25,976 nt of DNA from an uncultured virus (IMG/VR IMGVR_UViG_3300042560_002875) (Duplodnaviria > Heunggongvirae > Uroviricota > Caudoviricetes): IMG/VR virus record IMGVR_UViG_3300042560_002875; one strand, given 5' to 3'. Shown here one piece after another: positions 6,541 to 25,976 of this stretch. Position numbers and translations under genes: made by a program. A model generated the notes under the pieces. It saw nothing but the letters and a program-made list of their open reading frames with translations, was not told the origin of the DNA and searched no databases. Every line of letters starts with the position of its first letter. Within the stretch, counting starts at the first letter, position 1.

Positions 6541-7415
6541 TCAGTAAACGAAGCTGTAGGCGACCGTGATGAAGTCCTTGTTCAGCACTTCAAAGCCGGC
6601 CATGAGGCTCCACACCATGATGATGAATCGACCAAAGTCATCATTGTTGTTGAGCAGGATTTGAGCATTGTCACCGCCAATACCCACGCCAACGGCCTGC
6701 ATCCCGAAGAACAGGATTGGAGCAGCTTCCGTGACAGCAGCTGAGATGCTGGCCACGGGGATGGTGGTGGTGTAGCTCTTGTCTGGCAGGTTGGTCGATT
6801 CAAACCATTGAATCCCCTCGAAAAGGAATCCAGTCGGCATGACCGGCTGACCGGCCACAAAGCCAGCCTGGCCGTAGCCAACGCCAGAACCCAGGTAGTT
6901 GATGGCATTGGGGGCCAGATGCGGTTGCATCGGATTGGCCATGCCATTGCCGGGGTAACGAGCGATCTCGCGGAAATCGCTGTCCTGGCGCAGGTGCTTC
7001 ATCGCAGTGGGACTGGCGATGCAGCGATAGTGCCCATTCGGGAAGGTTGGCACGTTGCGCCGACGCATGCCTTCAAGGACGTCCAGGAGGTCGTCCTTGA
7101 CCCCAAATTTGGCGGACTGGCCGGAGCCGTAGCTTGCGACCGTGGTGCCGGTTTTGGTCTTGTTCTTGGGGAAGAAATAGCCACCCTGGGTGGAATCAGC
7201 CCTTCCGTTGGCTTCTGCTTTGAAGAGCTCGTCAGCGAACACCCGATCACGCCAACGGCGGTAATCGTCAAGAAGTGTTAAGGAGCCGATCGACTGGTGG
7301 AACGCCGCGATATTGCGGGTATCCAGCAGCAGGCGCTGAGAAGTCATCAGCGTCTCCCGTGCCACCTTGAAGGTGCTGGGCTGGTCAGCCTGTGAAGGGT
7401 CGGCGGGGCCGGTAT
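6541..7415 (-). CDS. Major capsid protein, exon 2
   Basis: The track ORF frame extends upstream to 7413 (TGPADPSQADQPSTFKVARETL...). Capsid-like motifs: YRCIASPTAMKHLRQDSDF, GFLFEGIQWFESTNLP, FFGMQAVGVG, DDFGR..MVW. The spliced product is 379 aa. Confidence 0.85.
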
Positions 7416-8429
7416 CAGTGTTGTTACCCTAGAGGCTCTTTATCCCCTAGTTCTGCAGCTTTGCCATTGCTGCAGCTCAGACTATATCATCACCCTTCAG
7501 GTCCACCTGATTCGGGTGCGGAGCACTCGTGCCGCCTTATCGTCCACTTCCTGCAAGCAGGTGTTGGGACTCGCTCAGCCATTGGGCAACAGTGCCCGTT
7601 CGACTGAGGTCAACTTTGTAGGCAAGGCAGGGATGTATGTACTCAGTAATGGCTCCAACAAGTAGTCGAAACTGCTTGGCGAACCATCGGAGATACAGCA
7701 TTCCACCTTTGTGACGAACAACTGAGCCAGAGGCTCCGGTGACGTCGTGAATCCAAGAAGCGACAACATCAACCTCCTCTTCATCCTTGCTGACGGGCAG
7801 CCAGCCAGAGCGCTCGACCTTGATCGAGCGAGGCCTCTGACGGCGACGGACCTCCAGGGATCCATCGTCCATCCAGAGAAGTGCCAACGCCTCGGGGCCG
7901 AGGTCACTGAACGCCTGAGGGGTGAATCTTTTGACGCCATTTGGATATAAGACGTCATACACGGGGGCGAGGTGCCGCTTGCTGCTGACGCCGAAACGGA
8001 CGGCGGGGTATTTCCCTTTGTCCATAAACGAGCGCAGAGATGCAGCAGTCCCGAGCTCTTGATTCAGCCGAGCCAGCTGCCATTGCGCGTAAGGCGCCTG
8101 GCGCTGACAGCGGCTGATGTACAGCGTAACTGTTCCGAAACGCTTATCGCGTCTCAGACAGCCATCACCAAGAGCACATCCCATGAAAAACGCTTGTGTC
8201 ACAACTTGATTGCCTAGGGAGTCGACAACGGTAGTCGTTGAACCTTCCAGCCATTCCTGGCTGGCTTGGCTGCTGATTACCCGGCCCAGTGTCATCCGTA
8301 AGAGTCTACCGGTTGGAGGGCTTCCAGCAATTCACTCCGTGTTCGACGCGGATTACGCCGCGAAGGAGCTGATAGCCAGAGCTGGTACGTCCGCCTCAGG
8401 GGCGAACAGGCCAGTCAGGGCTTGAGCCA
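7416..8429 (-). mobile_element. Group I self-splicing intron (IA-like architecture), 1014 nt, in the major capsid gene
   Basis: 5' exon ends in U (GAG T at 8430) and the intron ends in G (7416); the join gives KE-Y-TGPADP in frame. Core elements on the minus strand: P AAUUGCUGGAA 8322-8332; Q AAUCAGCAG 8270-8278; R GUUCAACGACUA 8232-8243; S GAUAUAGUC 7480-7488; P3 CGGAGUG 8333-8339 pairs UGCUCCG 7519-7525; P6 stem CCAGCCA-GGAA-UGGCUGG; P8 CACCC..UCAGGU/ACCUGA..GGGUG; P9 CUGCAGC/GCUGCAG. Confidence 0.93.
7537..8295 (-). CDS. Intron-encoded two-motif LAGLIDADG homing endonuclease
   Basis: Motifs AFFMGCALGDG and EALALLWMDDG, both retaining acidic residues. The bulk of the ORF lies between P7 and P3'. 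Start is ATG 8295 or GTG 8202. Confidence 0.85.
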   Translation of the reverse strand: MTLGRVISSQASQEWLEGSTTTVVDSLGNQVVTQAFFMGCALGDGCLRRDKRFGTVTLYISRCQRQAPYAQWQLARLNQELGTAASLRSFMDKGKYPAVRFGVSSKRHLAPVYDVLYPNGVKRFTPQAFSDLGPEALALLWMDDGSLEVRRRQRPRSIKVERSGWLPVSKDEEEVDVVASWIHDVTGASGSVVRHKGGMLYLRWFAKQFRLLVGAITEYIHPCLAYKVDLSRTGTVAQWLSESQHLLAGSGR

Positions 8430-8694
8430 ACTCTTTAAGGGTCACATTGACCTTGTCCTTCACGATGTTGCGAGACGACGCCGTGCCGAGCGTCTGATCA
8501 GCAGTGCGCTCTCGGGAGTCCTTGGTGCCAGGATTTCCCCAGTAGCGATAGCGGTCTAGGGCGACCGTTTGACCTGGTTGTGCCCCGAAATCGTGAACGA
8601 CAACAGGATCAACCGCCATCTCTACCACGTAGGCAGGATGGGGTCGATAAAGTTCGGCGCCCAGGATTTTCGGGAAATCATTGTCTATCCACAT
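8430..8694 (-). CDS. Major capsid protein, exon 1
   Basis: ATG 8694 (GGAG upstream): MWIDNDFPKILGAELYRPHP...PGQTVALDRY...KVNVTLKE. The G.TV...RY and VTLKEY pattern is typical of HK97-fold capsid N-terminal/E-loop regions. Confidence 0.85.
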
Positions 8695-8776
8695 TGGATG
8701 ACACGCTCCGAAAGATAAAGGATGTTGATAGCAAGCATTCCGCCCGCTGCTTCTTACACTAGAAAGGACGCGTGGG

Positions 8777-9388
8777 GTGAAATTGAACGCACCAGACATT
8801 CGCGGCCTGCTGGGAGTCTTCCTTGGTGACGGCTTCCTCTCTCAAAGCAGGTCAGCGGTCAAGGGCCATATCAAGGCCACCTTTCACGGTGGTGCCGACG
8901 AGCGTGAATTCCTCGAGGAGAAGGCAAGTGAAATCAAGCTCGTCATCCCAACCCAGGCCAAGATCTCGACCTATCAGATGCGCCCCAGCCAGACCGGCCA
9001 TCAGACCACGGTGCTGCGATTCCGGTTCTCGAGTCCACTGCTAGATCCGGTCTACAACTTGTTCTATCCCGATGGATTTCGGGAAATCACGCACCCCCTC
9101 TTGGACATTCTTGGACTCAGAGCAGCAGCCTGGCTTTGGGCTGAGGGGTATCGAAAGGGGGACAAGGACCATCGCCTGAGGAGAGTTGGGGCCCTGCGAG
9201 ACGAGGCTCGATTGGTCAGTGGCTGGCTCGAGTTTTTAACTGGCGCCAAGTCGTCCGTCACGGGCCAGTCCTCTCGAATACTGCCTCAACTGTCGTTCAG
9301 CTCTAAGGATGCGGAAATCGTCAAGGAGGCCCTCCTTCCCTATGCCCCGATCAGCCGGAAGCATTTGTTTCTCCCGGGGGAAAAATGA
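8777..9388 (+). CDS. Free-standing LAGLIDADG-like protein 1 (203 aa)
   Basis: RGLLGVFLGDG, LDPVYNLFYPDG and GLRAAAWLWAEG parallel the intron enzyme (LAPVYDVLYPNG; GPEALALLWMDDG). AAGGA RBS, GTG start. Confidence 0.75.
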   Translation: MKLNAPDIRGLLGVFLGDGFLSQSRSAVKGHIKATFHGGADEREFLEEKASEIKLVIPTQAKISTYQMRPSQTGHQTTVLRFRFSSPLLDPVYNLFYPDGFREITHPLLDILGLRAAAWLWAEGYRKGDKDHRLRRVGALRDEARLVSGWLEFLTGAKSSVTGQSSRILPQLSFSSKDAEIVKEALLPYAPISRKHLFLPGEK

Positions 9389-9993
9389 GCGCTCGTCTGG
9401 TTTCCATGGCCGTCGCCTATGCCATGGGCAGTGGCACTTTGAGGTGCAAGGGAGTCAAGCAGCGCCCCTGGCTGGAGCTAAAGCGGCTCGAAACAGAGCG
9501 AACCTACATGCTGCACCAGGTGCGATCCCTGCAGCGAGCGGGAGCGGGCCCCGTGCGCGCTGCTGTTGACATGCTTCCAGGCCGGCATTTTTACGATGTC
9601 TGCAGGGCCCGCCTGCAGCACGATGCATTCGAGAGGGCCATTGAACTGCTCGCTCCAGAAGGTGAAATCTCTCTCTCCAAAGAAGTCCTCGAGGTCGGAG
9701 GAGGCAGGGGCCTGGCCAGTATTTGGCTGGACCTGGGCCACTGGGATAGGGGAACCGCTGTGATCCCTCTCTCTAGTGAGCCCAATGCAGACGCCCTGCT
9801 GAGTCATTTGATCGGGCGTGGCGTTACTGGAATCGGCAAGGGGGGCAATCCAACAACCCTGCGCCTCTCAAAGCGGCAGTTCGCCCAATTCAGTGGGCTG
9901 ATTCGACACCATGTGCACCGCTCGATGGCCCATGCCCTCAGGGAGGGTTCAAAACATGGCACCTCAATCATGCGAGTTGCTACCCTTGTCTGA
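9385..9993 (+). CDS. Free-standing degenerate LAGLIDADG-like protein 2 (202 aa)
   Basis: SMAVAYAMGSG, AIELLAPEG and GGRGLASIWLDLG. The acidic residue before each motif Gly is replaced (S, L). ATGA overlap with the upstream gene. Confidence 0.65.
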   Translation: MSARLVSMAVAYAMGSGTLRCKGVKQRPWLELKRLETERTYMLHQVRSLQRAGAGPVRAAVDMLPGRHFYDVCRARLQHDAFERAIELLAPEGEISLSKEVLEVGGGRGLASIWLDLGHWDRGTAVIPLSSEPNADALLSHLIGRGVTGIGKGGNPTTLRLSKRQFAQFSGLIRHHVHRSMAHALREGSKHGTSIMRVATLV

Positions 9994-10168: not shown

Positions 10169-13100
10169 ATGCCGGATCAGCCGGGCATTACGACAAGATC
10201 GGAGAAGGGTGAGCCTCTTTCGTTTCAGGAAGTTGACGATAACTGGCGCCTGCTGACTTACCGCATTGACGAGGCGGAGGATGCACTTGATGACAAATAC
10301 TCGCCCGATGACAGGGCAACAGAAGAGGAGGCTGTAGCCGGGAGCCTGGAAACACCAGGCAGTATCAGCAACACGACGCTGATGACCCCTTACACCACCG
10401 CATTGGCTCTGGACCAGCGGGTGGGTCTTGGCGACCTCCTGGACAGGGTCGACACCCTGGAAGAAGAAGTCGTACAACTGGGGGAGGACACCGAGTTCCT
10501 GTTCAACACCAAATACGACGCTTCTGATCGGGCGACCAATCAGGAGGCCGTAGCAGGAGATCTCTCGACTCCAAACAGCATCAGCAATTCAGTGCTGATG
10601 ACTCCGTACACCACGGCACTGGCGATTGACGAACGGGTCAGCAGCAGTGATTTGTCCTACGACCCGGCAACCGGCGAGCTCGATATCTCCACGGGCGAAG
10701 GAGTCACACTGCCGCTGGCGGAACCGGAGGGTGATCCAGGTCTCCTCACTGGGGAGGACAAGGCCAAAATTGACGATCTCAAGCTTGTTGCGCTCACTGG
10801 CTCCTACAACGACCTGTCGGATCTGCCGGACCTTGGCTCTGCAGCCTTTACTGACTCGGAAGACTATGCCACCTGGGAGCAAGGGGAACTCGCTGATACG
10901 GCGGTTCAGCCAGAGGAGCTGACAAGCGCCCTGTCTTCCAAGGCTGACCTGGTCAACGGTCTGGTCCCAGCCTCACAGTTGCCGGGATTCGTGGATGACG
11001 TTCGGGAATATACCAATTTGGCAAGTTTCCCAGACCCGGGAACGACAGGAGTCATTTACGTCGCACTCGATGAAAACAAGCAGTACCGATGGAGCGGCTC
11101 GAGTTACATCCAGCTCACGGCCTCTCCAGGATCAACGGACGCTGTCCCTGAAGGCAGTGTCAACAAATACTTCACGGAGCAAAGGGCAGCAGCAGCAGCG
11201 CCTGTTCAGTCAGTAGCTGGGCGCACGGGAAGCGTTGTTCTCAGTGTCGGCGATGTTTCTAATGCTGTTGCAACGGGAGATTCCAGGCTGAGTGACTCCA
11301 GGGAGTGGAGCGCTCCAACAGCCACGGAAGCGGAGGCCACCCAGGGCACGTCTACGGAAAGGCGCGCCTGGACTCCAGTTCGAGTCTTCCAATCCATCGC
11401 AAGCTGGTGGAACGCCTCTAGCGATAAAACAAAACTCGACGGGATCACCCCGGGGGCCACTGCCAATTCCAGTGATGCCTTCTTGCTCAACAGGGCGAAC
11501 CACACGGGAAGCCAGGCCGCTTCCACGATTTCAGGCTTGGCAACGGTCGCCACAAGCGGCTCCTTCCTTGATCTAACCAATCGACCCACTCTCGGGACGG
11601 CCGCAGCCTTGGATGTTCCCGCGGCTGCTGGGGGGACCGCTCTCTCGGGCCAGGTCGTCAGGGGCGACGATCCACGTCTGGACAATAACCGCCCACCAGC
11701 TGCCCACAGCCACGGGAATATCACCAATGGCGGCGCTATTGGCAGCACTGCGAATCTCCCGATCATCACCACGACAGGGGGCGTCCTTACGACCGGCTCC
11801 TTTGGAGCAGCAGGGGGCACGTTTTGCGAGGGGAACGATTCAAGGCTGAGCGGCCCTCGAGAACCCACATCGCACAGCCACGGGAATATCACCAATGGTG
11901 GCGCTATCGGCAGCACCGCAAATCTCCCGATCATTACGACGGCTGGGGGAGTCCTTACTGCTGGTTCCTTTGGGACGGCAGGGGGCACGTTTTGCGAAGG
12001 GAACGATTCCAGGTTGGCGACCAATCTCGGCTATACGGCTGCCTCCAGGATCATCACTAGCTCGACTGGCCTGAGTGCGACGCTTCCGCTTGTAGAGGCA
12101 GCTGGTAACGCTGGGCTTCTGTCTGGTGCCGACAAGACCAAGCTCAATGGAATCAGCACGGGGGCCACTGCGAACTCCAGTGACGCGTTCCTGTTGAACA
12201 GGGCGAATCACACGGGAACGCAGCTCTTTTCGACGCTCACCTCAACGCCGACAACTCTGTCCGGGTATGGAATTACAAATGCCTACACCAAGGCGGAGAC
12301 GGATGCACTGGCTCAAGGCCTGAAGCCTAAAACCGCCGTCCGGGTTGCAACCACGGCAAACATCACGCTATCGGGGGCCCAGACTATTGATACTGTCACT
12401 ACTTTAGCTACGGGCGACCGTGTTCTTGTAAAAGACCAGACTGATAAATCTAAGAATGGCTTTTACAACTACAACGCAGCAGGAGCATGGACGCGCACGG
12501 CGGACTTTGATGAATGGTCGGAAGTCCCAAATGCTTATGTATTTGTTAGAGAAGGTCTGGTCAATGCGGGCGATAGTTTTGTCTGTATAAGTGGCAGCAA
12601 TCTGTTCGGTGCTAGTGAAATAGGCTCTTCAGATATTGAATTTATCCTGTTTAGCGCTGCCATTGAGATCGCCGCGGGGACAGGTCTCAACAAGGCGGGA
12701 AACACGATCTCCCTCGCAAATACCGCGGTCACGCCTGGCACTTACGGAAGCGCATCTCAGGTTGCCACACTCACGGTTGATCAACAGGGGAGGTTGACAG
12801 CAGCTGGCTCAACGCCACTTGGTGTTGGAACCACGCCCAATGTCCCGATCATCACCGGAGCAGGAGGGGTTCTCACTGCTGGCACTTTCGGAAACACCGC
12901 AAATTCTTTCTGTCAAGGCAACGACAGCAGGCTCAGTGATTCTCGTACACCATTAGCACACGCCCACGGCAATATCACCAACAGTGGAGCAATTGGTACA
13001 AATCCCAACTTGCCAGTCATTACGACAACCAGTGGTTTACTAACTACAGGCACATTTGGAAACACTGCGAATTCTTTCTGTCAAGGTAACGACAGCAGAC

Positions 13101-16100
13101 TGAGTGATGCTCGTACACCATCAGCACACACCCAGGCGTGGTCCACAATAACCGCCACTCCGACAAATCTGTCTGGATACGGTATTACAGATGCTGTTAG
13201 CAGTGCAGACAGCAGACTGAGTGATGCTCGCACACCATTAGCGCATACCCACGGCAATATCACCAACGGTGGAGCGATTGGTGCAAATCCCAACTTGCCA
13301 GTCATTACTACAACTGGTGGCTTGCTAACTACAGGTACATTTGGAAACACTGCGAATTCTTTCTGTCAAGGTAACGACAGCAGACTCAGTGATTCTCGCA
13401 CACCATTAGCACACACCCACGGCAATATCACCAACAGTGGAGCGATTGGTACAAATCCCAACTTGCCAGTCATTACGACAACCAGTGGTTTACTAACTAC
13501 AGGTACATTTGGAAACACTGCGAATTCTTTCTGTCAAGGTAACGACAGCAGACTGAGTGATGCTCGTACACCATTAGCACACACTCAGGCGTGGTCCACA
13601 ATAACCGGCACTCCGACGAATTTATCTGGATACGGTATTACAGACGCGGCTAGCAGTTCTCACGCCCACGGCAATATCACCAACGGTGGAGCGATTGGTA
13701 CAAATCCCAACTTACCAATCATTACGACAACTAGTGGCTTGCTAACTACAGGTACATTTGGAAACACTGCGAATTCTTTCTGTCAAGGTAACGACAGCAG
13801 ACTCAGTGATTCTCGTACACCCGTGGCACACACCCACGGCAATATCACCAACGGTGGAACGATTGGTACAAATCCCAACTTACCAATCATTACGACAACC
13901 AGTGGCTTGCTAACTACAGGTACATTTGGAAACACTGCGAATTCTTTCTGTCAAGGTAACGACAGCAGACTCAGTGATTCTCGCACACCATTAGCACACA
14001 CCCACGGCAATATCACCAACAGTGGAGCAATTGGTACAAATCCCAACTTACCAATCATTACGACAACCAGTGGCTTGCTAACTACAGGTACATTTGGAAA
14101 CACTGCGAATTCTTTCTGTCAAGGTAACGACAGCAGACTCAGTGATTCTCGTACACCCGTGGCACACACTCAGGCGTGGTCCACAATAACCGGCACTCCG
14201 ACGACTATATCCGGTTACGGGATTACAGATGCGCTGTCTACCGGTAATCAGAATCCCAATCTGGTGCTTGCCGGTCCATCGTCTGGCACTACTGCGGCCA
14301 CGCCCACTTTCAGGGCTTTGGCTGCTGGAGACCTGCCTAATGTCTCAGGCCTGACGGCAGCGGGCTATGGCAGCGCGTCAAGCGTGCCCACGCTGACTGT
14401 TGACGCAAAGGGTCGAATCACCGCAATAAGCAATACGGCTATCTCCATTGCCAATACCGCCGTCAGCGGCCTGGGGACTGCGTCAACCCGCAATGTCCCT
14501 TCAGGGGGAGGCGGTTCCAGCACTCCCAGTCTTCTTCCGGCCCCGGCCTCGGTTTCAGGAATCGACCTCGATGGGGATGGGGACGGAAACGTATTGTTTC
14601 AGGAAGCCGATAAAGCCTTTGATAACAATGTCACCACTAAGTATCGCAACACTGGAGGAGCCAACTCCGGCTTGGAGTTCTCATACGGGACGGCAACACA
14701 ACTTACATCATTTGTTATTACAACAGCAAATGATTCTACCGATCGAGACCCTGCCTCTTACCAGGTTTATGGATTCCAAAGCGGATCCTGGCAGCTGTTA
14801 ACTTCCGGTTCCCTTAGCCTGCCTACGGCAAGGCAGACCGACTCAGCGTCAATCACGCTCCCCGGCAATTTGCCTTCACTGACGCAGTACCGAGTGGTAT
14901 TCCCCACGCTTCGTGTCAGCGGCACAGCATCCATGCAGATTGCTGAGCTCAAGATGACCGGCATCCAGGGAACTGGGGGAGGCGGCGGGAGCACAAATGC
15001 CGCTGCTACCGAGGTCGTGCTCGGGAGCGATACCCGATTGACTGATGCCAGGACACCTACAACCCATTCCCATAGTGTTTTCAACAACACGACCTCCGGG
15101 TTTGCTCCTGCCTCAGGGGGTGGGACAACCAATTTTCTGCGCGCCGATGGAAGCTGGGCAGCACCTCCAGTCGGTGGGGGTGGGGGTGGAGGGACAGTAA
15201 CCAGTGTTGGACTGGCCCTGCCGAATATCTTTACGGTCTCGAATAGTCCCGTAACAGGTTCCAATACTCTGACCGGGACTCTAAATACTCAAAACGCCAA
15301 TCTCGTCTTTGCAGGGCCTGTTACAGGTGGTGCTGCAACGCCAGGTTTCAGGACACTTGTTGCAGCCGACATCCCGACCCATTCCCATAGTGTTTTTTCC
15401 ACTACTGCCGCTGGGTTTACTCCTATTTCACCAGGTGGGCAAACCAGGTACCTCCGCGCTGATGGGAACTGGGAGATACCTCCAGTTGGCGGAGGTGGAG
15501 GCGGCGGAACGGTCACGAGTGTTGGACTGTCCCTGCCGAATATCTTTACGGTCTCGAATAGCCCCGTAACAGGTTCTGGGACTCTGACCGGGGCTCTAAA
15601 TACTCAAAACGCCAATCTCGTCTTTGCAGGGCCCACTGCCGGTAATGCGGCAACGCCAGGTTTTAGGACACTTGTTGCAGCCGACATCCCAGCCCATTCC
15701 CATAGTCTTTTCACCAGTACTGCCTCCGGGTTTGCTCCTGCCTCAGGGGGTGGGACAACCAATTTCCTGCGCGCCGATGGAAGCTGGGCAGCACCTCCAG
15801 TCGGCGGAGGTGGAGGCGGCGGGACAGTAACCAGTGTTGGACTGTCCCTGCCGAATATCTTTACGGTCTCGAATAGCCCCGTAACAGGTTCTGGGACTCT
15901 GACCGGGGCTCTAAATACTCAAAACGCCAATCTCGTCTTTGCAGGGCCTGTTACAGGTGGTGCTGCAACGCCAGGTTTTAGAACCCTGGCTACAGAAGAT
16001 CTGCCCACCATCTCAGGTCTGGCGTCAGGAACCTATGGCAGCTCATCTCAGGTACCCACCTTCACTGTTGACGCGAAGGGGAGGCTGACAGCAGTACAGA

Positions 16101-17263
16101 ACGTAGGTGTGTCAGCTCCGGGTGTCGCGACTGCAAGCAACCTGATCACCAATGGAAACTTTGATATATGGCAGCGACGCACTTCGTCGGGGTCGCTCGC
16201 CGTGACAGCTAGTCCTCCCAGGGTCGCAGATAGGTGGGCTTCCGCTGTCCTGTTTGCAGCGTCTAATAACGCCTCGGGCACTTATACCGTTTCAAGACAA
16301 GCATGCACTTCAACCGAATTGGCAAGCTTTAGCGCTAGCTACTATCAAAGGATTGCAACAAGTAACGTATCCGCTGGGACAACAGGATTGAACAGCCTGA
16401 CTTCTGACAGCTTTGGGCTACTTGCACTCCAAAACGTTGAGGACGCGGCGTCTATCCTTGGTCAGACAGTGACCCTATCCTTCTGGGCCAGGGCTTCTGC
16501 TGCTACTCAGGTGGTTTCCGAATCTCAAATCTTTACCGTTGGTGCAGGGCGTTTTTGGACCCCCACGATATGCAAAACCTTCAATCTTACGACATCTTGG
16601 CAAAAGTTTACACATACATACACGATGCCAACCTATGCGCAGGTTGTGGCCTCTGCGTACAATCCAAATGCGGTCATTACAACGCAGACCAATCCAACCT
16701 ACACCCCTCTCGGTGAAGCCGCTTTACAGCCGCTGAGCAATTGGCTGTACCAGGTTGACATAAAATTTGCATGGTCCCTTGGTACGTGGAGGAGGTCTGG
16801 GAACGCTTATTCCACTCGCCCATCTGGCTTTGTGGGGACAGAACAAACCCAGGCGCAAATGAATAGCATGAACAACAGTTTGATCACAAACGGGTTCTAC
16901 GACATTGCACAAATACAAGTGGTGCCGGGATCTGGTGACCCCCAGTTCTGGCGTAGACCCGCCCAGCAGGAGCTCGCGCTTTGCCAAAGATACTATTGCG
17001 TTGCTCTTGCCAATACTCGTGGATACAATAGTGGGTCGAACTGGTTAGAGACACCCATCGTCTGGCCAGTAACCATGAGAGCAGCGCCCACTTGCAGCTT
17101 TGTTTCAGGTGTTGGTACTTCTGGCAATATCCAACAAAACCTAATTGAGTCCGTAAGTCCCATTGGAGCTAGGCATGCCATCCTGGGAATCAACAGCGTA
17201 AGCGACTCCTTTGCGCTCGCATTCCAGGTCGCTGCCGATGCTGAGAACAATTTAATTGACTAA
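10169..17263 (+). CDS. Giant tail fibre / receptor-binding protein (2364 aa)
   Basis: N-terminal ITTRSEKGEPLSFQEVDDNW anchor-like motif; VRVATTANITLSGAQTID...GDRVLVKDQT fibre domain; TPGTYGSA...VDQQGR and HxH repeats; PTTLSGYGITDA motifs; discoidin-like insert; C-terminal NLITNGNFDIWQR...TLSFWA...ELALCQRYY...PVTMRAAPT tip. Confidence 0.9.
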   Translation: MPDQPGITTRSEKGEPLSFQEVDDNWRLLTYRIDEAEDALDDKYSPDDRATEEEAVAGSLETPGSISNTTLMTPYTTALALDQRVGLGDLLDRVDTLEEEVVQLGEDTEFLFNTKYDASDRATNQEAVAGDLSTPNSISNSVLMTPYTTALAIDERVSSSDLSYDPATGELDISTGEGVTLPLAEPEGDPGLLTGEDKAKIDDLKLVALTGSYNDLSDLPDLGSAAFTDSEDYATWEQGELADTAVQPEELTSALSSKADLVNGLVPASQLPGFVDDVREYTNLASFPDPGTTGVIYVALDENKQYRWSGSSYIQLTASPGSTDAVPEGSVNKYFTEQRAAAAAPVQSVAGRTGSVVLSVGDVSNAVATGDSRLSDSREWSAPTATEAEATQGTSTERRAWTPVRVFQSIASWWNASSDKTKLDGITPGATANSSDAFLLNRANHTGSQAASTISGLATVATSGSFLDLTNRPTLGTAAALDVPAAAGGTALSGQVVRGDDPRLDNNRPPAAHSHGNITNGGAIGSTANLPIITTTGGVLTTGSFGAAGGTFCEGNDSRLSGPREPTSHSHGNITNGGAIGSTANLPIITTAGGVLTAGSFGTAGGTFCEGNDSRLATNLGYTAASRIITSSTGLSATLPLVEAAGNAGLLSGADKTKLNGISTGATANSSDAFLLNRANHTGTQLFSTLTSTPTTLSGYGITNAYTKAETDALAQGLKPKTAVRVATTANITLSGAQTIDTVTTLATGDRVLVKDQTDKSKNGFYNYNAAGAWTRTADFDEWSEVPNAYVFVREGLVNAGDSFVCISGSNLFGASEIGSSDIEFILFSAAIEIAAGTGLNKAGNTISLANTAVTPGTYGSASQVATLTVDQQGRLTAAGSTPLGVGTTPNVPIITGAGGVLTAGTFGNTANSFCQGNDSRLSDSRTPLAHAHGNITNSGAIGTNPNLPVITTTSGLLTTGTFGNTANSFCQGNDSRLSDARTPSAHTQAWSTITATPTNLSGYGITDAVSSADSRLSDARTPLAHTHGNITNGGAIGANPNLPVITTTGGLLTTGTFGNTANSFCQGNDSRLSDSRTPLAHTHGNITNSGAIGTNPNLPVITTTSGLLTTGTFGNTANSFCQGNDSRLSDARTPLAHTQAWSTITGTPTNLSGYGITDAASSSHAHGNITNGGAIGTNPNLPIITTTSGLLTTGTFGNTANSFCQGNDSRLSDSRTPVAHTHGNITNGGTIGTNPNLPIITTTSGLLTTGTFGNTANSFCQGNDSRLSDSRTPLAHTHGNITNSGAIGTNPNLPIITTTSGLLTTGTFGNTANSFCQGNDSRLSDSRTPVAHTQAWSTITGTPTTISGYGITDALSTGNQNPNLVLAGPSSGTTAATPTFRALAAGDLPNVSGLTAAGYGSASSVPTLTVDAKGRITAISNTAISIANTAVSGLGTASTRNVPSGGGGSSTPSLLPAPASVSGIDLDGDGDGNVLFQEADKAFDNNVTTKYRNTGGANSGLEFSYGTATQLTSFVITTANDSTDRDPASYQVYGFQSGSWQLLTSGSLSLPTARQTDSASITLPGNLPSLTQYRVVFPTLRVSGTASMQIAELKMTGIQGTGGGGGSTNAAATEVVLGSDTRLTDARTPTTHSHSVFNNTTSGFAPASGGGTTNFLRADGSWAAPPVGGGGGGGTVTSVGLALPNIFTVSNSPVTGSNTLTGTLNTQNANLVFAGPVTGGAATPGFRTLVAADIPTHSHSVFSTTAAGFTPISPGGQTRYLRADGNWEIPPVGGGGGGGTVTSVGLSLPNIFTVSNSPVTGSGTLTGALNTQNANLVFAGPTAGNAATPGFRTLVAADIPAHSHSLFTSTASGFAPASGGGTTNFLRADGSWAAPPVGGGGGGGTVTSVGLSLPNIFTVSNSPVTGSGTLTGALNTQNANLVFAGPVTGGAATPGFRTLATEDLPTISGLASGTYGSSSQVPTFTVDAKGRLTAVQNVGVSAPGVATASNLITNGNFDIWQRRTSSGSLAVTASPPRVADRWASAVLFAASNNASGTYTVSRQACTSTELASFSASYYQRIATSNVSAGTTGLNSLTSDSFGLLALQNVEDAASILGQTVTLSFWARASAATQVVSESQIFTVGAGRFWTPTICKTFNLTTSWQKFTHTYTMPTYAQVVASAYNPNAVITTQTNPTYTPLGEAALQPLSNWLYQVDIKFAWSLGTWRRSGNAYSTRPSGFVGTEQTQAQMNSMNNSLITNGFYDIAQIQVVPGSGDPQFWRRPAQQELALCQRYYCVALANTRGYNSGSNWLETPIVWPVTMRAAPTCSFVSGVGTSGNIQQNLIESVSPIGARHAILGINSVSDSFALAFQVAADAENNLID
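11700..14240 (+). repeat. 56-aa (168-nt) HxHGNITN repeats interspersed with AHTQAWSTIT..SGYGITDA units
   Basis: Two divergent copies at about 11700-12015, then one partial and six near-identical copies at about 12830-14160. Period 168 nt checked at 13251 vs 13419. Confidence 0.95.
15060..15990 (+). repeat. Three 105-aa (315-nt) repeats in the tail fibre
   Basis: CATAGT anchors at 15071, 15386 and 15701; unit HSHS.F...FLRADG.W..PPVGGGGGGGTVTSVGL.LPNIFTVSNSPVTGS..L...NANLVFAGP...TPGFRTL. Confidence 0.95.
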
Positions 17264-18546: not shown

Positions 18547-18957
18547 ATGCCATCCTCTCAATACCACGCCACCAATAAGCTCAACTGGCTCCGGGGAACT
18601 ACGTTTCCAGCGGCACTGAGCAATGTGTACCTCAGCCATCACACCGCGGATCCCGGCTCCTCCGGGGTCAATAGTGATGTCAGTACGGCTCTGGCTGGGG
18701 GGCGGACAACTTTGGCTACTTCGAGCTTGAGTGTGCCAGCAGCTAGCGCGGGAGGGGGTTTCCAGGTCAGCAATACGGCCACGGTTACGGCTTCCAGTTC
18801 AGCCGCTTCGGCTCAGACCATCACGCATCTTGGTATTTGGGATGCGCCTACTGGGGGTAATTTCATTACCTACGGCCTGCTCTCGCCCGCAGCTGTTATC
18901 GCCACGGGTGACGTGTATCGCTTTGCCACTGGGCAGATTGTTATCCGCGAGTTGTGA
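18547..18957 (+). CDS. Small tail-associated structural protein
   Basis: VYLSHHTADPG...ITHLGIWDAPTGGNF matches a common phage tail protein pattern (Y.ALHTADP...THxGIWDA.TGGN). Probable start ATG 18547. Confidence 0.7.
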   Translation: MPSSQYHATNKLNWLRGTTFPAALSNVYLSHHTADPGSSGVNSDVSTALAGGRTTLATSSLSVPAASAGGGFQVSNTATVTASSSAASAQTITHLGIWDAPTGGNFITYGLLSPAAVIATGDVYRFATGQIVIREL

Positions 18958-19690
18958 TGCGATGGACCCACATCCCCTTGCGGGATCGGTCCACCTTGCC
19001 TGAACGGTAAACATTGCGGGCGTCACTCACGCTCGCACCGGCAACACAGGCTGCGTAAATGCAAGGCTCCGTATAGAAGCCGTCGTAGAATTTCACGCCA
19101 GACGCGGGATACTTCCAGGCCGGTGCAGAGAACTCCGACCATGGATCCGCCACGTTGATGAGGCATCGATCGCTCTTGTGGTCCCGCATCAGGCCATCAA
19201 GCACAATTACATGCCCAGAGCCTGTGAACCAGCCATGCGTGATCAGCAGCTCTCCTGCTTTCAGCCACTGGTAAACCTCGTCCAAAGAGGCGTTGCTTGT
19301 GTAGGTATGGGCGACATGGTCGTATCCCTTGATAACCCGGGCCATGACTGCCGGATCACCAGCTGTGCCGATACTGGTCAGCCGGCGGCGAATGTCCCTG
19401 ATATCAGGATCCCGCACTGCCATGGCGATACAGGCCGCCTGACAGGTGAAAGCATCGGGCTGGCTGAGTTTGAGGGCTTTGACCTTGGTCTTCCACTCGT
19501 TGACCTCGGCCCTGACCTCATCGGCGGGGCGCTCCTGTGGTGGTTTTTTCCAGACACCTTCTCGGAGTTCGCCGCCATCGGCATAGAGAGCTCGCTGCTC
19601 TGGGGTTAGGCGAGCTTCCAGGGCATCCCAGAAGGCCAACTGATGAGGCTCTTCTGATGTGTGGATGGCGTATTGGCGCAGGGAAATCAT
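18941..19690 (-). CDS. Papain-like C39-type peptidase, possible endolysin/cell-wall hydrolase
   Basis: SQPDAFTCQAACIAM (Gln and Cys), GHVIVLDG (His), VADPW (Asp). N-terminal PHQLAFWDALE segment recalls cyanophage lysin N-termini. Confidence 0.75.
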   Translation of the reverse strand: MISLRQYAIHTSEEPHQLAFWDALEARLTPEQRALYADGGELREGVWKKPPQERPADEVRAEVNEWKTKVKALKLSQPDAFTCQAACIAMAVRDPDIRDIRRRLTSIGTAGDPAVMARVIKGYDHVAHTYTSNASLDEVYQWLKAGELLITHGWFTGSGHVIVLDGLMRDHKSDRCLINVADPWSEFSAPAWKYPASGVKFYDGFYTEPCIYAACVAGASVSDARNVYRSGKVDRSRKGMWVHRITTRG

Positions 19691-24784: not shown

Positions 24785-25324
24785 TCAGCGCTCCTCTCTC
24801 AGCTGGGCGAGGAAGGTCTCGAATGATTCCTCTAAAACGCTCTGCATTTCGGGGTCGTCAGGAAAGGAATCCTGCACGGTCTTCAGGAGTCGATCAGCTC
24901 CAGCCAGCAGGAGCCCCCGTCGATCTTGGCCGCGCTCCATCCGCTCGATCTCCACCAGGTGCCCTCGCAACTCCTTTGTCAGAGCAGCGATGAGCCTCGG
25001 GTCCGGATTTTCGCAAGCTCGAAGCGCTGCAATATCCTGCTGGAGCCGCACGGCCTCTGCGGTGAGCGCCAGTTTTCGATTCAGCCTGGGATAGCGTTCT
25101 TTCTGCCAAGACTCCAGCTCGAGAAAGCACGATTCATATCCCATGGCACTGGCATACATCCAGAGCTGGTACACGGAATCGCGATTGTCGGCCTCTGTTA
25201 GGAATCTTTCCCGTTGCTCGTTATTTAGCGAGGAGAGAAAAGCCGATACCCCAGGATGGGAATCAGCCAAAGTATCTGGCGGCGGCCTTGCCGCGGGAGA
25301 ACGGAGAGTAACGGCTAATGGCAC
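24785..25324 (-). CDS. Putative terminase small subunit
   Basis: Helical, charged protein of 160-180 aa immediately upstream of terL. A TTG at 25270 overlapping the upstream stop is an alternative start. The call is positional. Confidence 0.45.
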   Translation of the reverse strand: MPLAVTLRSPAARPPPDTLADSHPGVSAFLSSLNNEQRERFLTEADNRDSVYQLWMYASAMGYESCFLELESWQKERYPRLNRKLALTAEAVRLQQDIAALRACENPDPRLIAALTKELRGHLVEIERMERGQDRRGLLLAGADRLLKTVQDSFPDDPEMQSVLEESFETFLAQLREER

Positions 25325-25976
25325 CCCTCGCGTCGGCCCTTAGGCGCAGGGCCTCGTCGGTTCCTTGAGTGAGGGTCTTGCGCTCTTGCTCTCCAGCCAT
25401 GCCGATTCGGCGCTCCTCGCTGGTGTTGCGGTCGCGGCCTATGCGCTCTTGAGAATCGGCGCTGTACCGGCCAAGGCGCTCCCGGCTGTCATCGCTGTAC
25501 TTAGCAAGGCGCTCCTGAGAGTCGGACGTGTAACGTGTCCGCTCGGATTCCTGCTCTTGCCCAAAGCGGGATGCCCGCTCCTGGCTGTCGGAGGAATACC
25601 GGGTTCCCTCGAGGGCCCGATCAGCCCCATACATCTGGCCGCGGACCTGGGTCTGGGTGCCTTTGAGGGCTTGATCGGCACCATACTTGCTAGTCCTCTC
25701 TTGAGAATCAGCTGTATAGCGAGTCCGCTCAGATTCTTGTTGTTGACCAAAACGAGAGGATCGCTCCTGGCTATCAGAGGAATACCGGGTTCCCTCGAGG
25801 GCCCGATCAGCCCCATACATCTGGCCGCGAACCTGGGTCTGGGTGCCTTTGAGGGCTTGATCGGCACCATACTTGCTAGTCCTCTCTTGAGAATCAGCTG
25901 TATAGCGAGTCCGCTCAGATTCTTGTTGTTGACCAAAACGAGAGGATCGCTCCTGGCTATCAGAGGAATACCGGGT
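25263..25976 (-). CDS. Partial 11-residue-repeat protein (start outside the window)
   Basis: The frame is open from 25976 to the stop at 25263 (238 codons). Units RYSSDSQERSS, RFGQQQESERT, RYTADSQERTS, KYGADQALKGT, MYGADRALEGT; 186-nt DNA duplication (25621 vs 25807). Confidence 0.85.
   Translation of the reverse strand, partial: TRYSSDSQERSSRFGQQQESERTRYTADSQERTSKYGADQALKGTQTQVRGQMYGADRALEGTRYSSDSQERSSRFGQQQESERTRYTADSQERTSKYGADQALKGTQTQVRGQMYGADRALEGTRYSSDSQERASRFGQEQESERTRYTSDSQERLAKYSDDSRERLGRYSADSQERIGRDRNTSEERRIGMAGEQERKTLTQGTDEALRLRADARGAISRYSPFSRGKAAARYFG

Follow-up and report, generated by a model that had tools for sequence, protein, structure and literature searches.

How a tailed phage could make a full-length major capsid protein from a gene interrupted by 1,014 nt is the question raised by a locus in the window analysed here, a stretch of 25,976 nt that lies at the very end of a complete virus record, which is 87,976 bp long and carries direct terminal repeats. 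We are highly confident in reading the interruption as a group I intron that is predicted to be self-splicing and that likely spreads through homing, using a LAGLIDADG endonuclease of its own (Table 1). Profile searches against PHROG identified a terminase, a virion structural protein and head genes within the window and, judged by its sequence, the phage with its 88-kb genome is related to Synechococcus phage S-EIV1. Exon 2 matches PHROG 1357 in a profile search and, among 50,697 annotated phages, matches solely S-EIV1 (KJ410740). An AlphaFold model from a 97%-identical capsid homologue was poor (mean pLDDT 46.9), and its top Foldseek matches were phage capsids, the best being the capsid of cyanopodophage Pan3 (E 4.8e-4); the capsid profile gave no match to PDB sequences. 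On the PHROG 1357 match and the Foldseek result from this low-confidence model, the interrupted gene is a tailed-phage major capsid gene. The genome has a single copy of it, so the full-length capsid protein depends on the predicted splicing, as the first-pass annotation of this DNA had supposed.

Table 1 Predicted features of the interrupted capsid locus, numbered from the first base of the window
Feature	Position	Strand	Remarks
Major capsid gene, exon 2	6541..7415	-	PHROG 1357 major head protein, E 3.9e-12; S-EIV1 homologue 59.9%
Group I intron, IA-like, 1,014 nt	7416..8429	-	omega-G end at 7416
Two P9-region hairpins ahead of omega-G	7429..7475	-	folded; complementarity kept in relatives despite varying stems, by eye
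P3 3' strand, P8, S element (P7 3' strand)	7480..7525	-	
LAGLIDADG_2 homing endonuclease gene, 221 aa	7537..8202	-	likely GTG start 8202; loop between P7 and P3 3' strand
P4-P6 domain and R element (P7 5' strand)	8232..8332	-	guanosine-binding-pair G at 8236
P3 5' strand	8333..8339	-	pairs with 7525-7519
P2 hairpin	8347..8362	-	loop contains in-frame stop TAA (8355-8353)
Internal guide sequence, P1 3' strand	8366..8369	-	pairs with last 4 exon-1 bases, U.G at splice site
Predicted P10 strand	8372..8379	-	putative pairing with exon 2 start, one bulge; by eye
Major capsid gene, exon 1	8430..8694	-	88 codons and first base U of Tyr89; intron-less L002 protein identical
Free-standing LAGLIDADG-like gene 1, outside intron	8777..9388	+	divergent from capsid gene; PF03161 E 5.9e-5, below cut-off
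Degenerate LAGLIDADG-like gene 2, outside intron	9385..9993	+	no Pfam match

The intron is inserted in codon 89 in phase 1, with exon 1 ending in U and the intron in G. The predicted join encodes 379 amino acids and the unspliced frame 113, terminating at the stop codon 8355-8353; recomputation reproduced all of the previously proposed exon and intron coordinates, boundaries and product lengths. Within the range searched 24 frame-keeping U/G joins are possible, so the boundary rule by itself leaves the junction unfixed. It is fixed by the intron-less sister allele L002, whose DNA runs uninterrupted across the site and encodes a protein 100% identical over residues 1-379, and the 23 other joins were rejected on this basis. 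The protein of L007 is 99% identical to that of the window. Continuity through KEYTGP had been expected of intron-less homologues, and E-Y-T-G-P is contiguous in 119 of the 120 homologues listed, out of 848 found, the sole exception being a 274-aa call that covers the 3' part of the capsid gene alone. Twenty-one IMG/VR loci were found with exon 2: the intron is present in 6, another 14 run contiguously, and the remaining 1 stops short of the site. From these sequence comparisons we regard the intron in the capsid gene as real and confirmed.

The catalytic core had been described as complete, and its P (8332-8322), Q (8278-8270), R (8243-8232) and S (7491-7480) elements were all located. A search with the group I covariance model, the check proposed for it, succeeded in part: RF00028 matches the 5' core (8335-8190, E 4e-5, model positions 54-153 only), but its 29.2 bits lie below the gathering score of 50. 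A scan of the window with Rfam at the gathering threshold found nothing, likely because the ORF splits the ribozyme core; the missed score is a matter of the library threshold and of an ORF interrupting the model rather than a biological feature. There was no second group I match in the phage's own genome. In a script comparison P1, P2, P3, P4, P6 and P7 were fully paired in all eight site-89 introns examined, P1 with 4/4 pairs including the splice-site U.G in each. Since P1, P4, P6 and P7 are invariant they yield no covariation, which is confined to P2 (5/5 pairs, with compensatory changes across the 8 introns) and P3 (compensatory changes at 3/7 positions between the window and L029-type introns); P8 and the P9 region were folded for the window's intron alone. 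As expected of a group I intron, the core combines P3-P7-P8 and P4-P6 with a G-C guanosine-binding pair, P1 holds the U.G at the splice site, the last base is a G, and removal restores the host frame. The ORF, and the short insert of the ORF-less L151, sit between R and the P3 3' strand, the position at which subgroup IA introns are described as having the extra helices P7.1 and P7.2 (PMC3428280, PMC3350498). A 6-bp stem, 8228-8223/7542-7537, seen by eye and lacking covariation, closes around the insert. We thus consider the intron IA-like, presumably with a likeness to IA1, and predict that it is self-splicing.

The first-pass annotation thus stood as to the intron, its boundaries, its products and the dependence of the capsid on splicing, and overlooked the homing endonuclease gene. 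This ORF matches PF03161 at 46.6 bits against a cut-off of 25 and is an intact two-motif gene. The residues D44 and D143/D144 at the catalytic positions are invariant in 30/30 aligned sequences, which comprise that of the window and 29 of 38 homologues. An ATG at 8295 was rejected as the start, because it would place the beginning of the gene within the ribozyme core and because the homologues have their starts aligned with V32. Among PDB entries the top match, albeit weak (E 0.003), is the intron-encoded endonuclease 6x1j. The protein ends ~10-20 residues before most homologues because the tail lies in another frame, and that of the relative L038 ends likewise; no promoter- or terminator-like site was found in 8100-8900. 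Scans with the endonuclease gave 9 loci apart from near-copies of the window's phage (5 from one scan and 3 from another, of which one shares its contig with a locus among the 5), all of them at the same capsid site wherever their ends are visible, and endonuclease-free forms of the intron, 263-389 nt in length, are present at this site. The enzyme is likely to be active in homing, which would explain how the intron spreads. Endonucleases of phage introns are described as belonging mostly to the GIY-YIG, HNH, PD-(D/E)xK and EDxHD families (PMC3984707), and the table of four examples with listed sites in PMC3073962, together with one rDNA case there, places none in P7.1.

Several observations bear on recent movement of the intron. 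Over its 1,014 nt it shows 0 differences in 6/6 near-identical intron-bearing loci, one of them partial. L006 and L019 are ~97.6% identical to the window and have 0 differences over the intron and flanks from -385 to +238; their further flanks differ by ~1.7% from the window, giving P ~2e-5 for the identical flanks alone. Between the window and the intron-less L002, 4 of 26 SNPs in the capsid gene lie at -10, -8, -5 and +2 (P ~6e-5). These SNP probabilities assume independent sites, and the site was chosen beforehand and the 12-nt span afterwards. The last 16 bases of exon 1 differ from those of the sister allele and match at 16/16 nt those of L281, a distantly related phage that carries the intron (73% identity in capsid exon 2), and the same intron occupies the same phase-1 site in phages with only ~60% identity in capsid exon 2. 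Homing has been described to co-convert flanking sequence (PMC3984707). Taken as a whole these patterns suggest that the intron has likely moved recently, and the evidence is unusually clean, although the long identical tract could derive from ordinary recombination instead of homing.

A gene in two pieces need not contain an intron at all: it may be a broken capsid gene, carry an insertion element, result from an assembly artefact or encode two separately translated capsid pieces. The ORF finder does return exon 2 with an ORF of its own (274 aa), and the databases contain one protein corresponding to such a fragment, but 8 independent records from near-identical phages share the same insertion, the ribozyme shows both conservation and covariation, and the genome has no second capsid copy, leaving this explanation exceedingly improbable. 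It is less far-fetched, though still unlikely, that the intron splices and is no longer mobile, its endonuclease decaying and the mix of alleles reflecting ordinary recombination with precise intron loss. The shifted C-terminal tail, the GTG start with no promoter-like site nearby and the endonuclease-free forms at the same site would fit such decay, yet every invariant residue of the endonuclease family is retained, and neither the unchanged intron of the six near-identical loci (one partial), nor the cluster of SNPs at the site, nor the exon end common to distant intron carriers favours it.

Splicing or mobility might also need a protein partner, with the intron ORF acting as a maturase or the neighbouring LAGLIDADG-like pair acting in trans. 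Gene 1 of this pair is related to the family of the intron endonuclease (98% hhalign probability, 25% identity), and in gene 2 the motif-1 Asp is missing in 25/26 aligned rows. The tandem pair (8777-9993), conserved at 30-58%, was present in 40 of the 84 loci whose upstream sequence reached at least 1,500 nt; as the 40 are mostly intron-less and the pair was undetected upstream of the intron-bearing L030-L032, we judge it to be no dedicated partner of the codon-89 intron, and it possibly represents domesticated DNA-binding proteins. In collaborative homing, exemplified by the S-PM2 psbA intron and F-CphI, an ORF-less intron occurs in linkage with a free-standing nuclease that acts at the same site, whereas the codon-89 intron has its own ORF and its neighbours lie mostly beside intron-less alleles. 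Given that the intron encodes its own enzyme, and that ORF-less copies persist, we hold the need for a partner to be quite improbable.

The preferred reading therefore remains that of a predicted self-splicing intron likely spread by its own endonuclease. By standard group I chemistry free guanosine would attack after U8430 and exon 1 would then attack after G7416; the joined message would encode the 379-aa capsid protein, while an unspliced message would yield merely a 113-aa fragment. During mixed infection the endonuclease would cut the intron-less site around codon 89, and repair of the break would then copy the intron plus short flanking tracts. More tentatively, ribosomes leaving exon 1 may enter 77 nt of the intron and halt in the P2 loop before the catalytic core, and this halt may be part of the folding pathway.

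The exon frame does run open to this point. A pattern of the guide sequence and P2 identified 36 loci, 35 of which hold the codon-89 intron, L249, despite matching the pattern, being dropped as no intron of this gene. The frame is open up to the P2-loop TAA in 35/35 copies, a new detail; the TAA belongs to the search pattern and the frame does not. The stretch ahead of the guide G measures 9, 27, 42 or 60 nt, all multiples of three, which is suggestive only, as for three length changes the chance is ~1 in 27. Most group I introns are described as having a stop directly after the junction (PMC3073962). In 16 of the 17 other introns mapped in the capsid family the exon frame stops ahead of the core, and in 6 it does so within 3 nt. 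At exon position -5 there is a G in 0/25 distinct intron-bearing alleles versus 38/96 intron-less contexts. A G at this position would extend P1; the contrast is inflated by shared ancestry, and co-conversion explains the absence of G as well as selection does. The broader proposal, that the S-EIV1-like capsid gene is among the most intron-invaded of phage protein genes, with a codon-89 intron tuned to translation and G avoided at -5, is one that we regard as speculative and rather doubtful.

The first-pass annotation had presumed that structural genes rarely host phage introns, a premise that finds no support in published capsid introns or in the distribution of an intron 3'-end motif, which identified 127 loci in 11 of 64 IMG/VR parts (~720 estimated overall). 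The motif derives from the codon-89 intron and the sample is biased towards its relatives. Fourteen of the 127 loci fall in the window's capsid family, in which the script placed introns at 14 sites, at codons 19, 22, 31, 36, 49, 54, 86, 89, 133, 145, 215, 232, 238 and 283; the codon-19 intron is without an S match, a 15th site ahead of codon 88 in L144 was seen by eye, and the junctions of the incomplete loci L126 and L151 were left out of the count. Of the remaining 113 loci, 83 were scanned after 15 without a usable frame downstream and 15 duplicates had been set aside, and 27 of the 83 gave no match. With duplicates restored they include 14 other major head proteins, 23 DNA/nucleotide-metabolism genes, 17 of one ATPase family and 4 tape-measure genes, such that capsid genes make up 28 of 127 loci in this motif-biased sample compared with 23 for DNA/nucleotide metabolism. 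Most alleles of the capsid family are nevertheless intron-less, with ~2,500 stretches matching the capsid patterns. The preference of phage introns for DNA-metabolism genes has been called mysterious (PMC12350094); our counts add to the evidence that it is partly a product of sampling, conserved capsid genes being frequent hosts too.

Two capsid genes of the family contain five (L093:1306-3727) and four (L068:539-2816) small ORF-less group I introns. The codon-22 intron is found as a 950-nt form with a LAGLIDADG ORF (L030:1657-2606) and as a 338-nt form without one (L031:2269-2606), a clean internal deletion in otherwise near-identical phages. The ATPase family, PHROG 1297 (L052, L058, L063, L069, L073, L087, L113, L122 and duplicates), has nearly all of its 17 motif loci at the same site by profile position, and the large phage contigs L106-L109 have three or four such intron ends within ~2.5 kb.

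Capsid-gene introns are already known in phages and there is no new mechanism here. RT-PCR together with sequencing of the protein N-terminus demonstrated splicing of the capsid intron in mycobacteriophage LittleE (Pope et al. 2013, PMC3706429); as described there it shares with the present locus a probable group I intron in the major capsid gene, U/G boundaries, a LAGLIDADG-like ORF and a patchy distribution in close relatives. In contrast to LittleE, which is unrelated in phage and host and whose ORF is on the opposite strand, the window's ORF, placed between P7 and P3, runs in the direction of its intron, and the capsid gene family has at least 14 intron sites. Delta and Zeta crAss-like phages are also described as having group I introns, with capsid genes among the typical hosts and one such gene in five pieces (Yutin et al. 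2021, PMC7886860); these are gut Bacteroidetes phages, outside the relatives of cyanophages, and their introns were called from ORF fragments and protein domains. The capsid gene is likewise host to a group I intron in lactococcal phage Tuc2009 (cited in PMC3706429), a Lactococcus phage and as such no cyanophage relative. The freshwater cyanophage Pf-WMP3 comparably has a protein gene with a group IA intron, which encodes the endonuclease I-PfoP3I and has P7.1-type extras (Kong et al. 2012, PMC3428280), but that intron is described as IA2 without P2, with an HNH nickase starting in P6a and DNA polymerase as host gene, whereas the window's has P2, a LAGLIDADG_2 enzyme past P7 and a capsid host gene. 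S-EIV1 itself (KJ410740) resembles the window in its exon 2 (59.9%) and in a similar gene order with the terminase upstream, but its capsid gene is contiguous at the codon-89 site and the upstream LAGLIDADG pair was undetected there. The S-EIV1 capsid homologue (L022:7734-8885) is not named as a capsid in GenBank, where an antisense ORF and a 3' fragment are listed over it. A literature search, mostly outside subscription journals, found no publication dealing with introns in the capsid genes of S-EIV1-like phages.

The host is likely a cyanobacterium, and the phage a cyanophage, because capsid relatives occur in cyanobacterial records, among them Nodosilinea (53%) and a Prochlorococcus assembly (64%); others are in records labelled as different taxa. 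An NCBIfam scan of 85 of 102 ORFs outside the window gave thyX, a dCTP deaminase and a subtilisin-like protease and no host-diagnostic gene, so the host assignment is drawn wholly from the relatives; a tRNA search found none. Elsewhere in the window, 10169-17263 (+) encodes a tail-fibre-like protein of 2,364 aa that is rich in internal repeats and weakly matches CBM_4_9 and F5/8 domains, 18941-19690 (-) is a 249-aa ORF with a weak papain-like peptidase match (PF12385, E 0.002), and 25263-25976 (-) is an ORF entering from the window end with ~51-aa tandem repeats and frames open on both strands.

One natural allele has the intron and the other lacks it, yet their capsid proteins are identical, which makes the two a clean pair on which a LAGLIDADG enzyme carried by a phage could be tested. 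In this widespread cyanophage lineage the capsid gene is split or overlooked by gene callers, with consequences for marker-gene surveys. If the translation-tuned reading of the codon-89 intron is true, ribosomes would pass the guide sequence and always halt precisely in the P2 loop, irrespective of the 5' length, and splicing, hence capsid output, would be gated by the translation state of the host.
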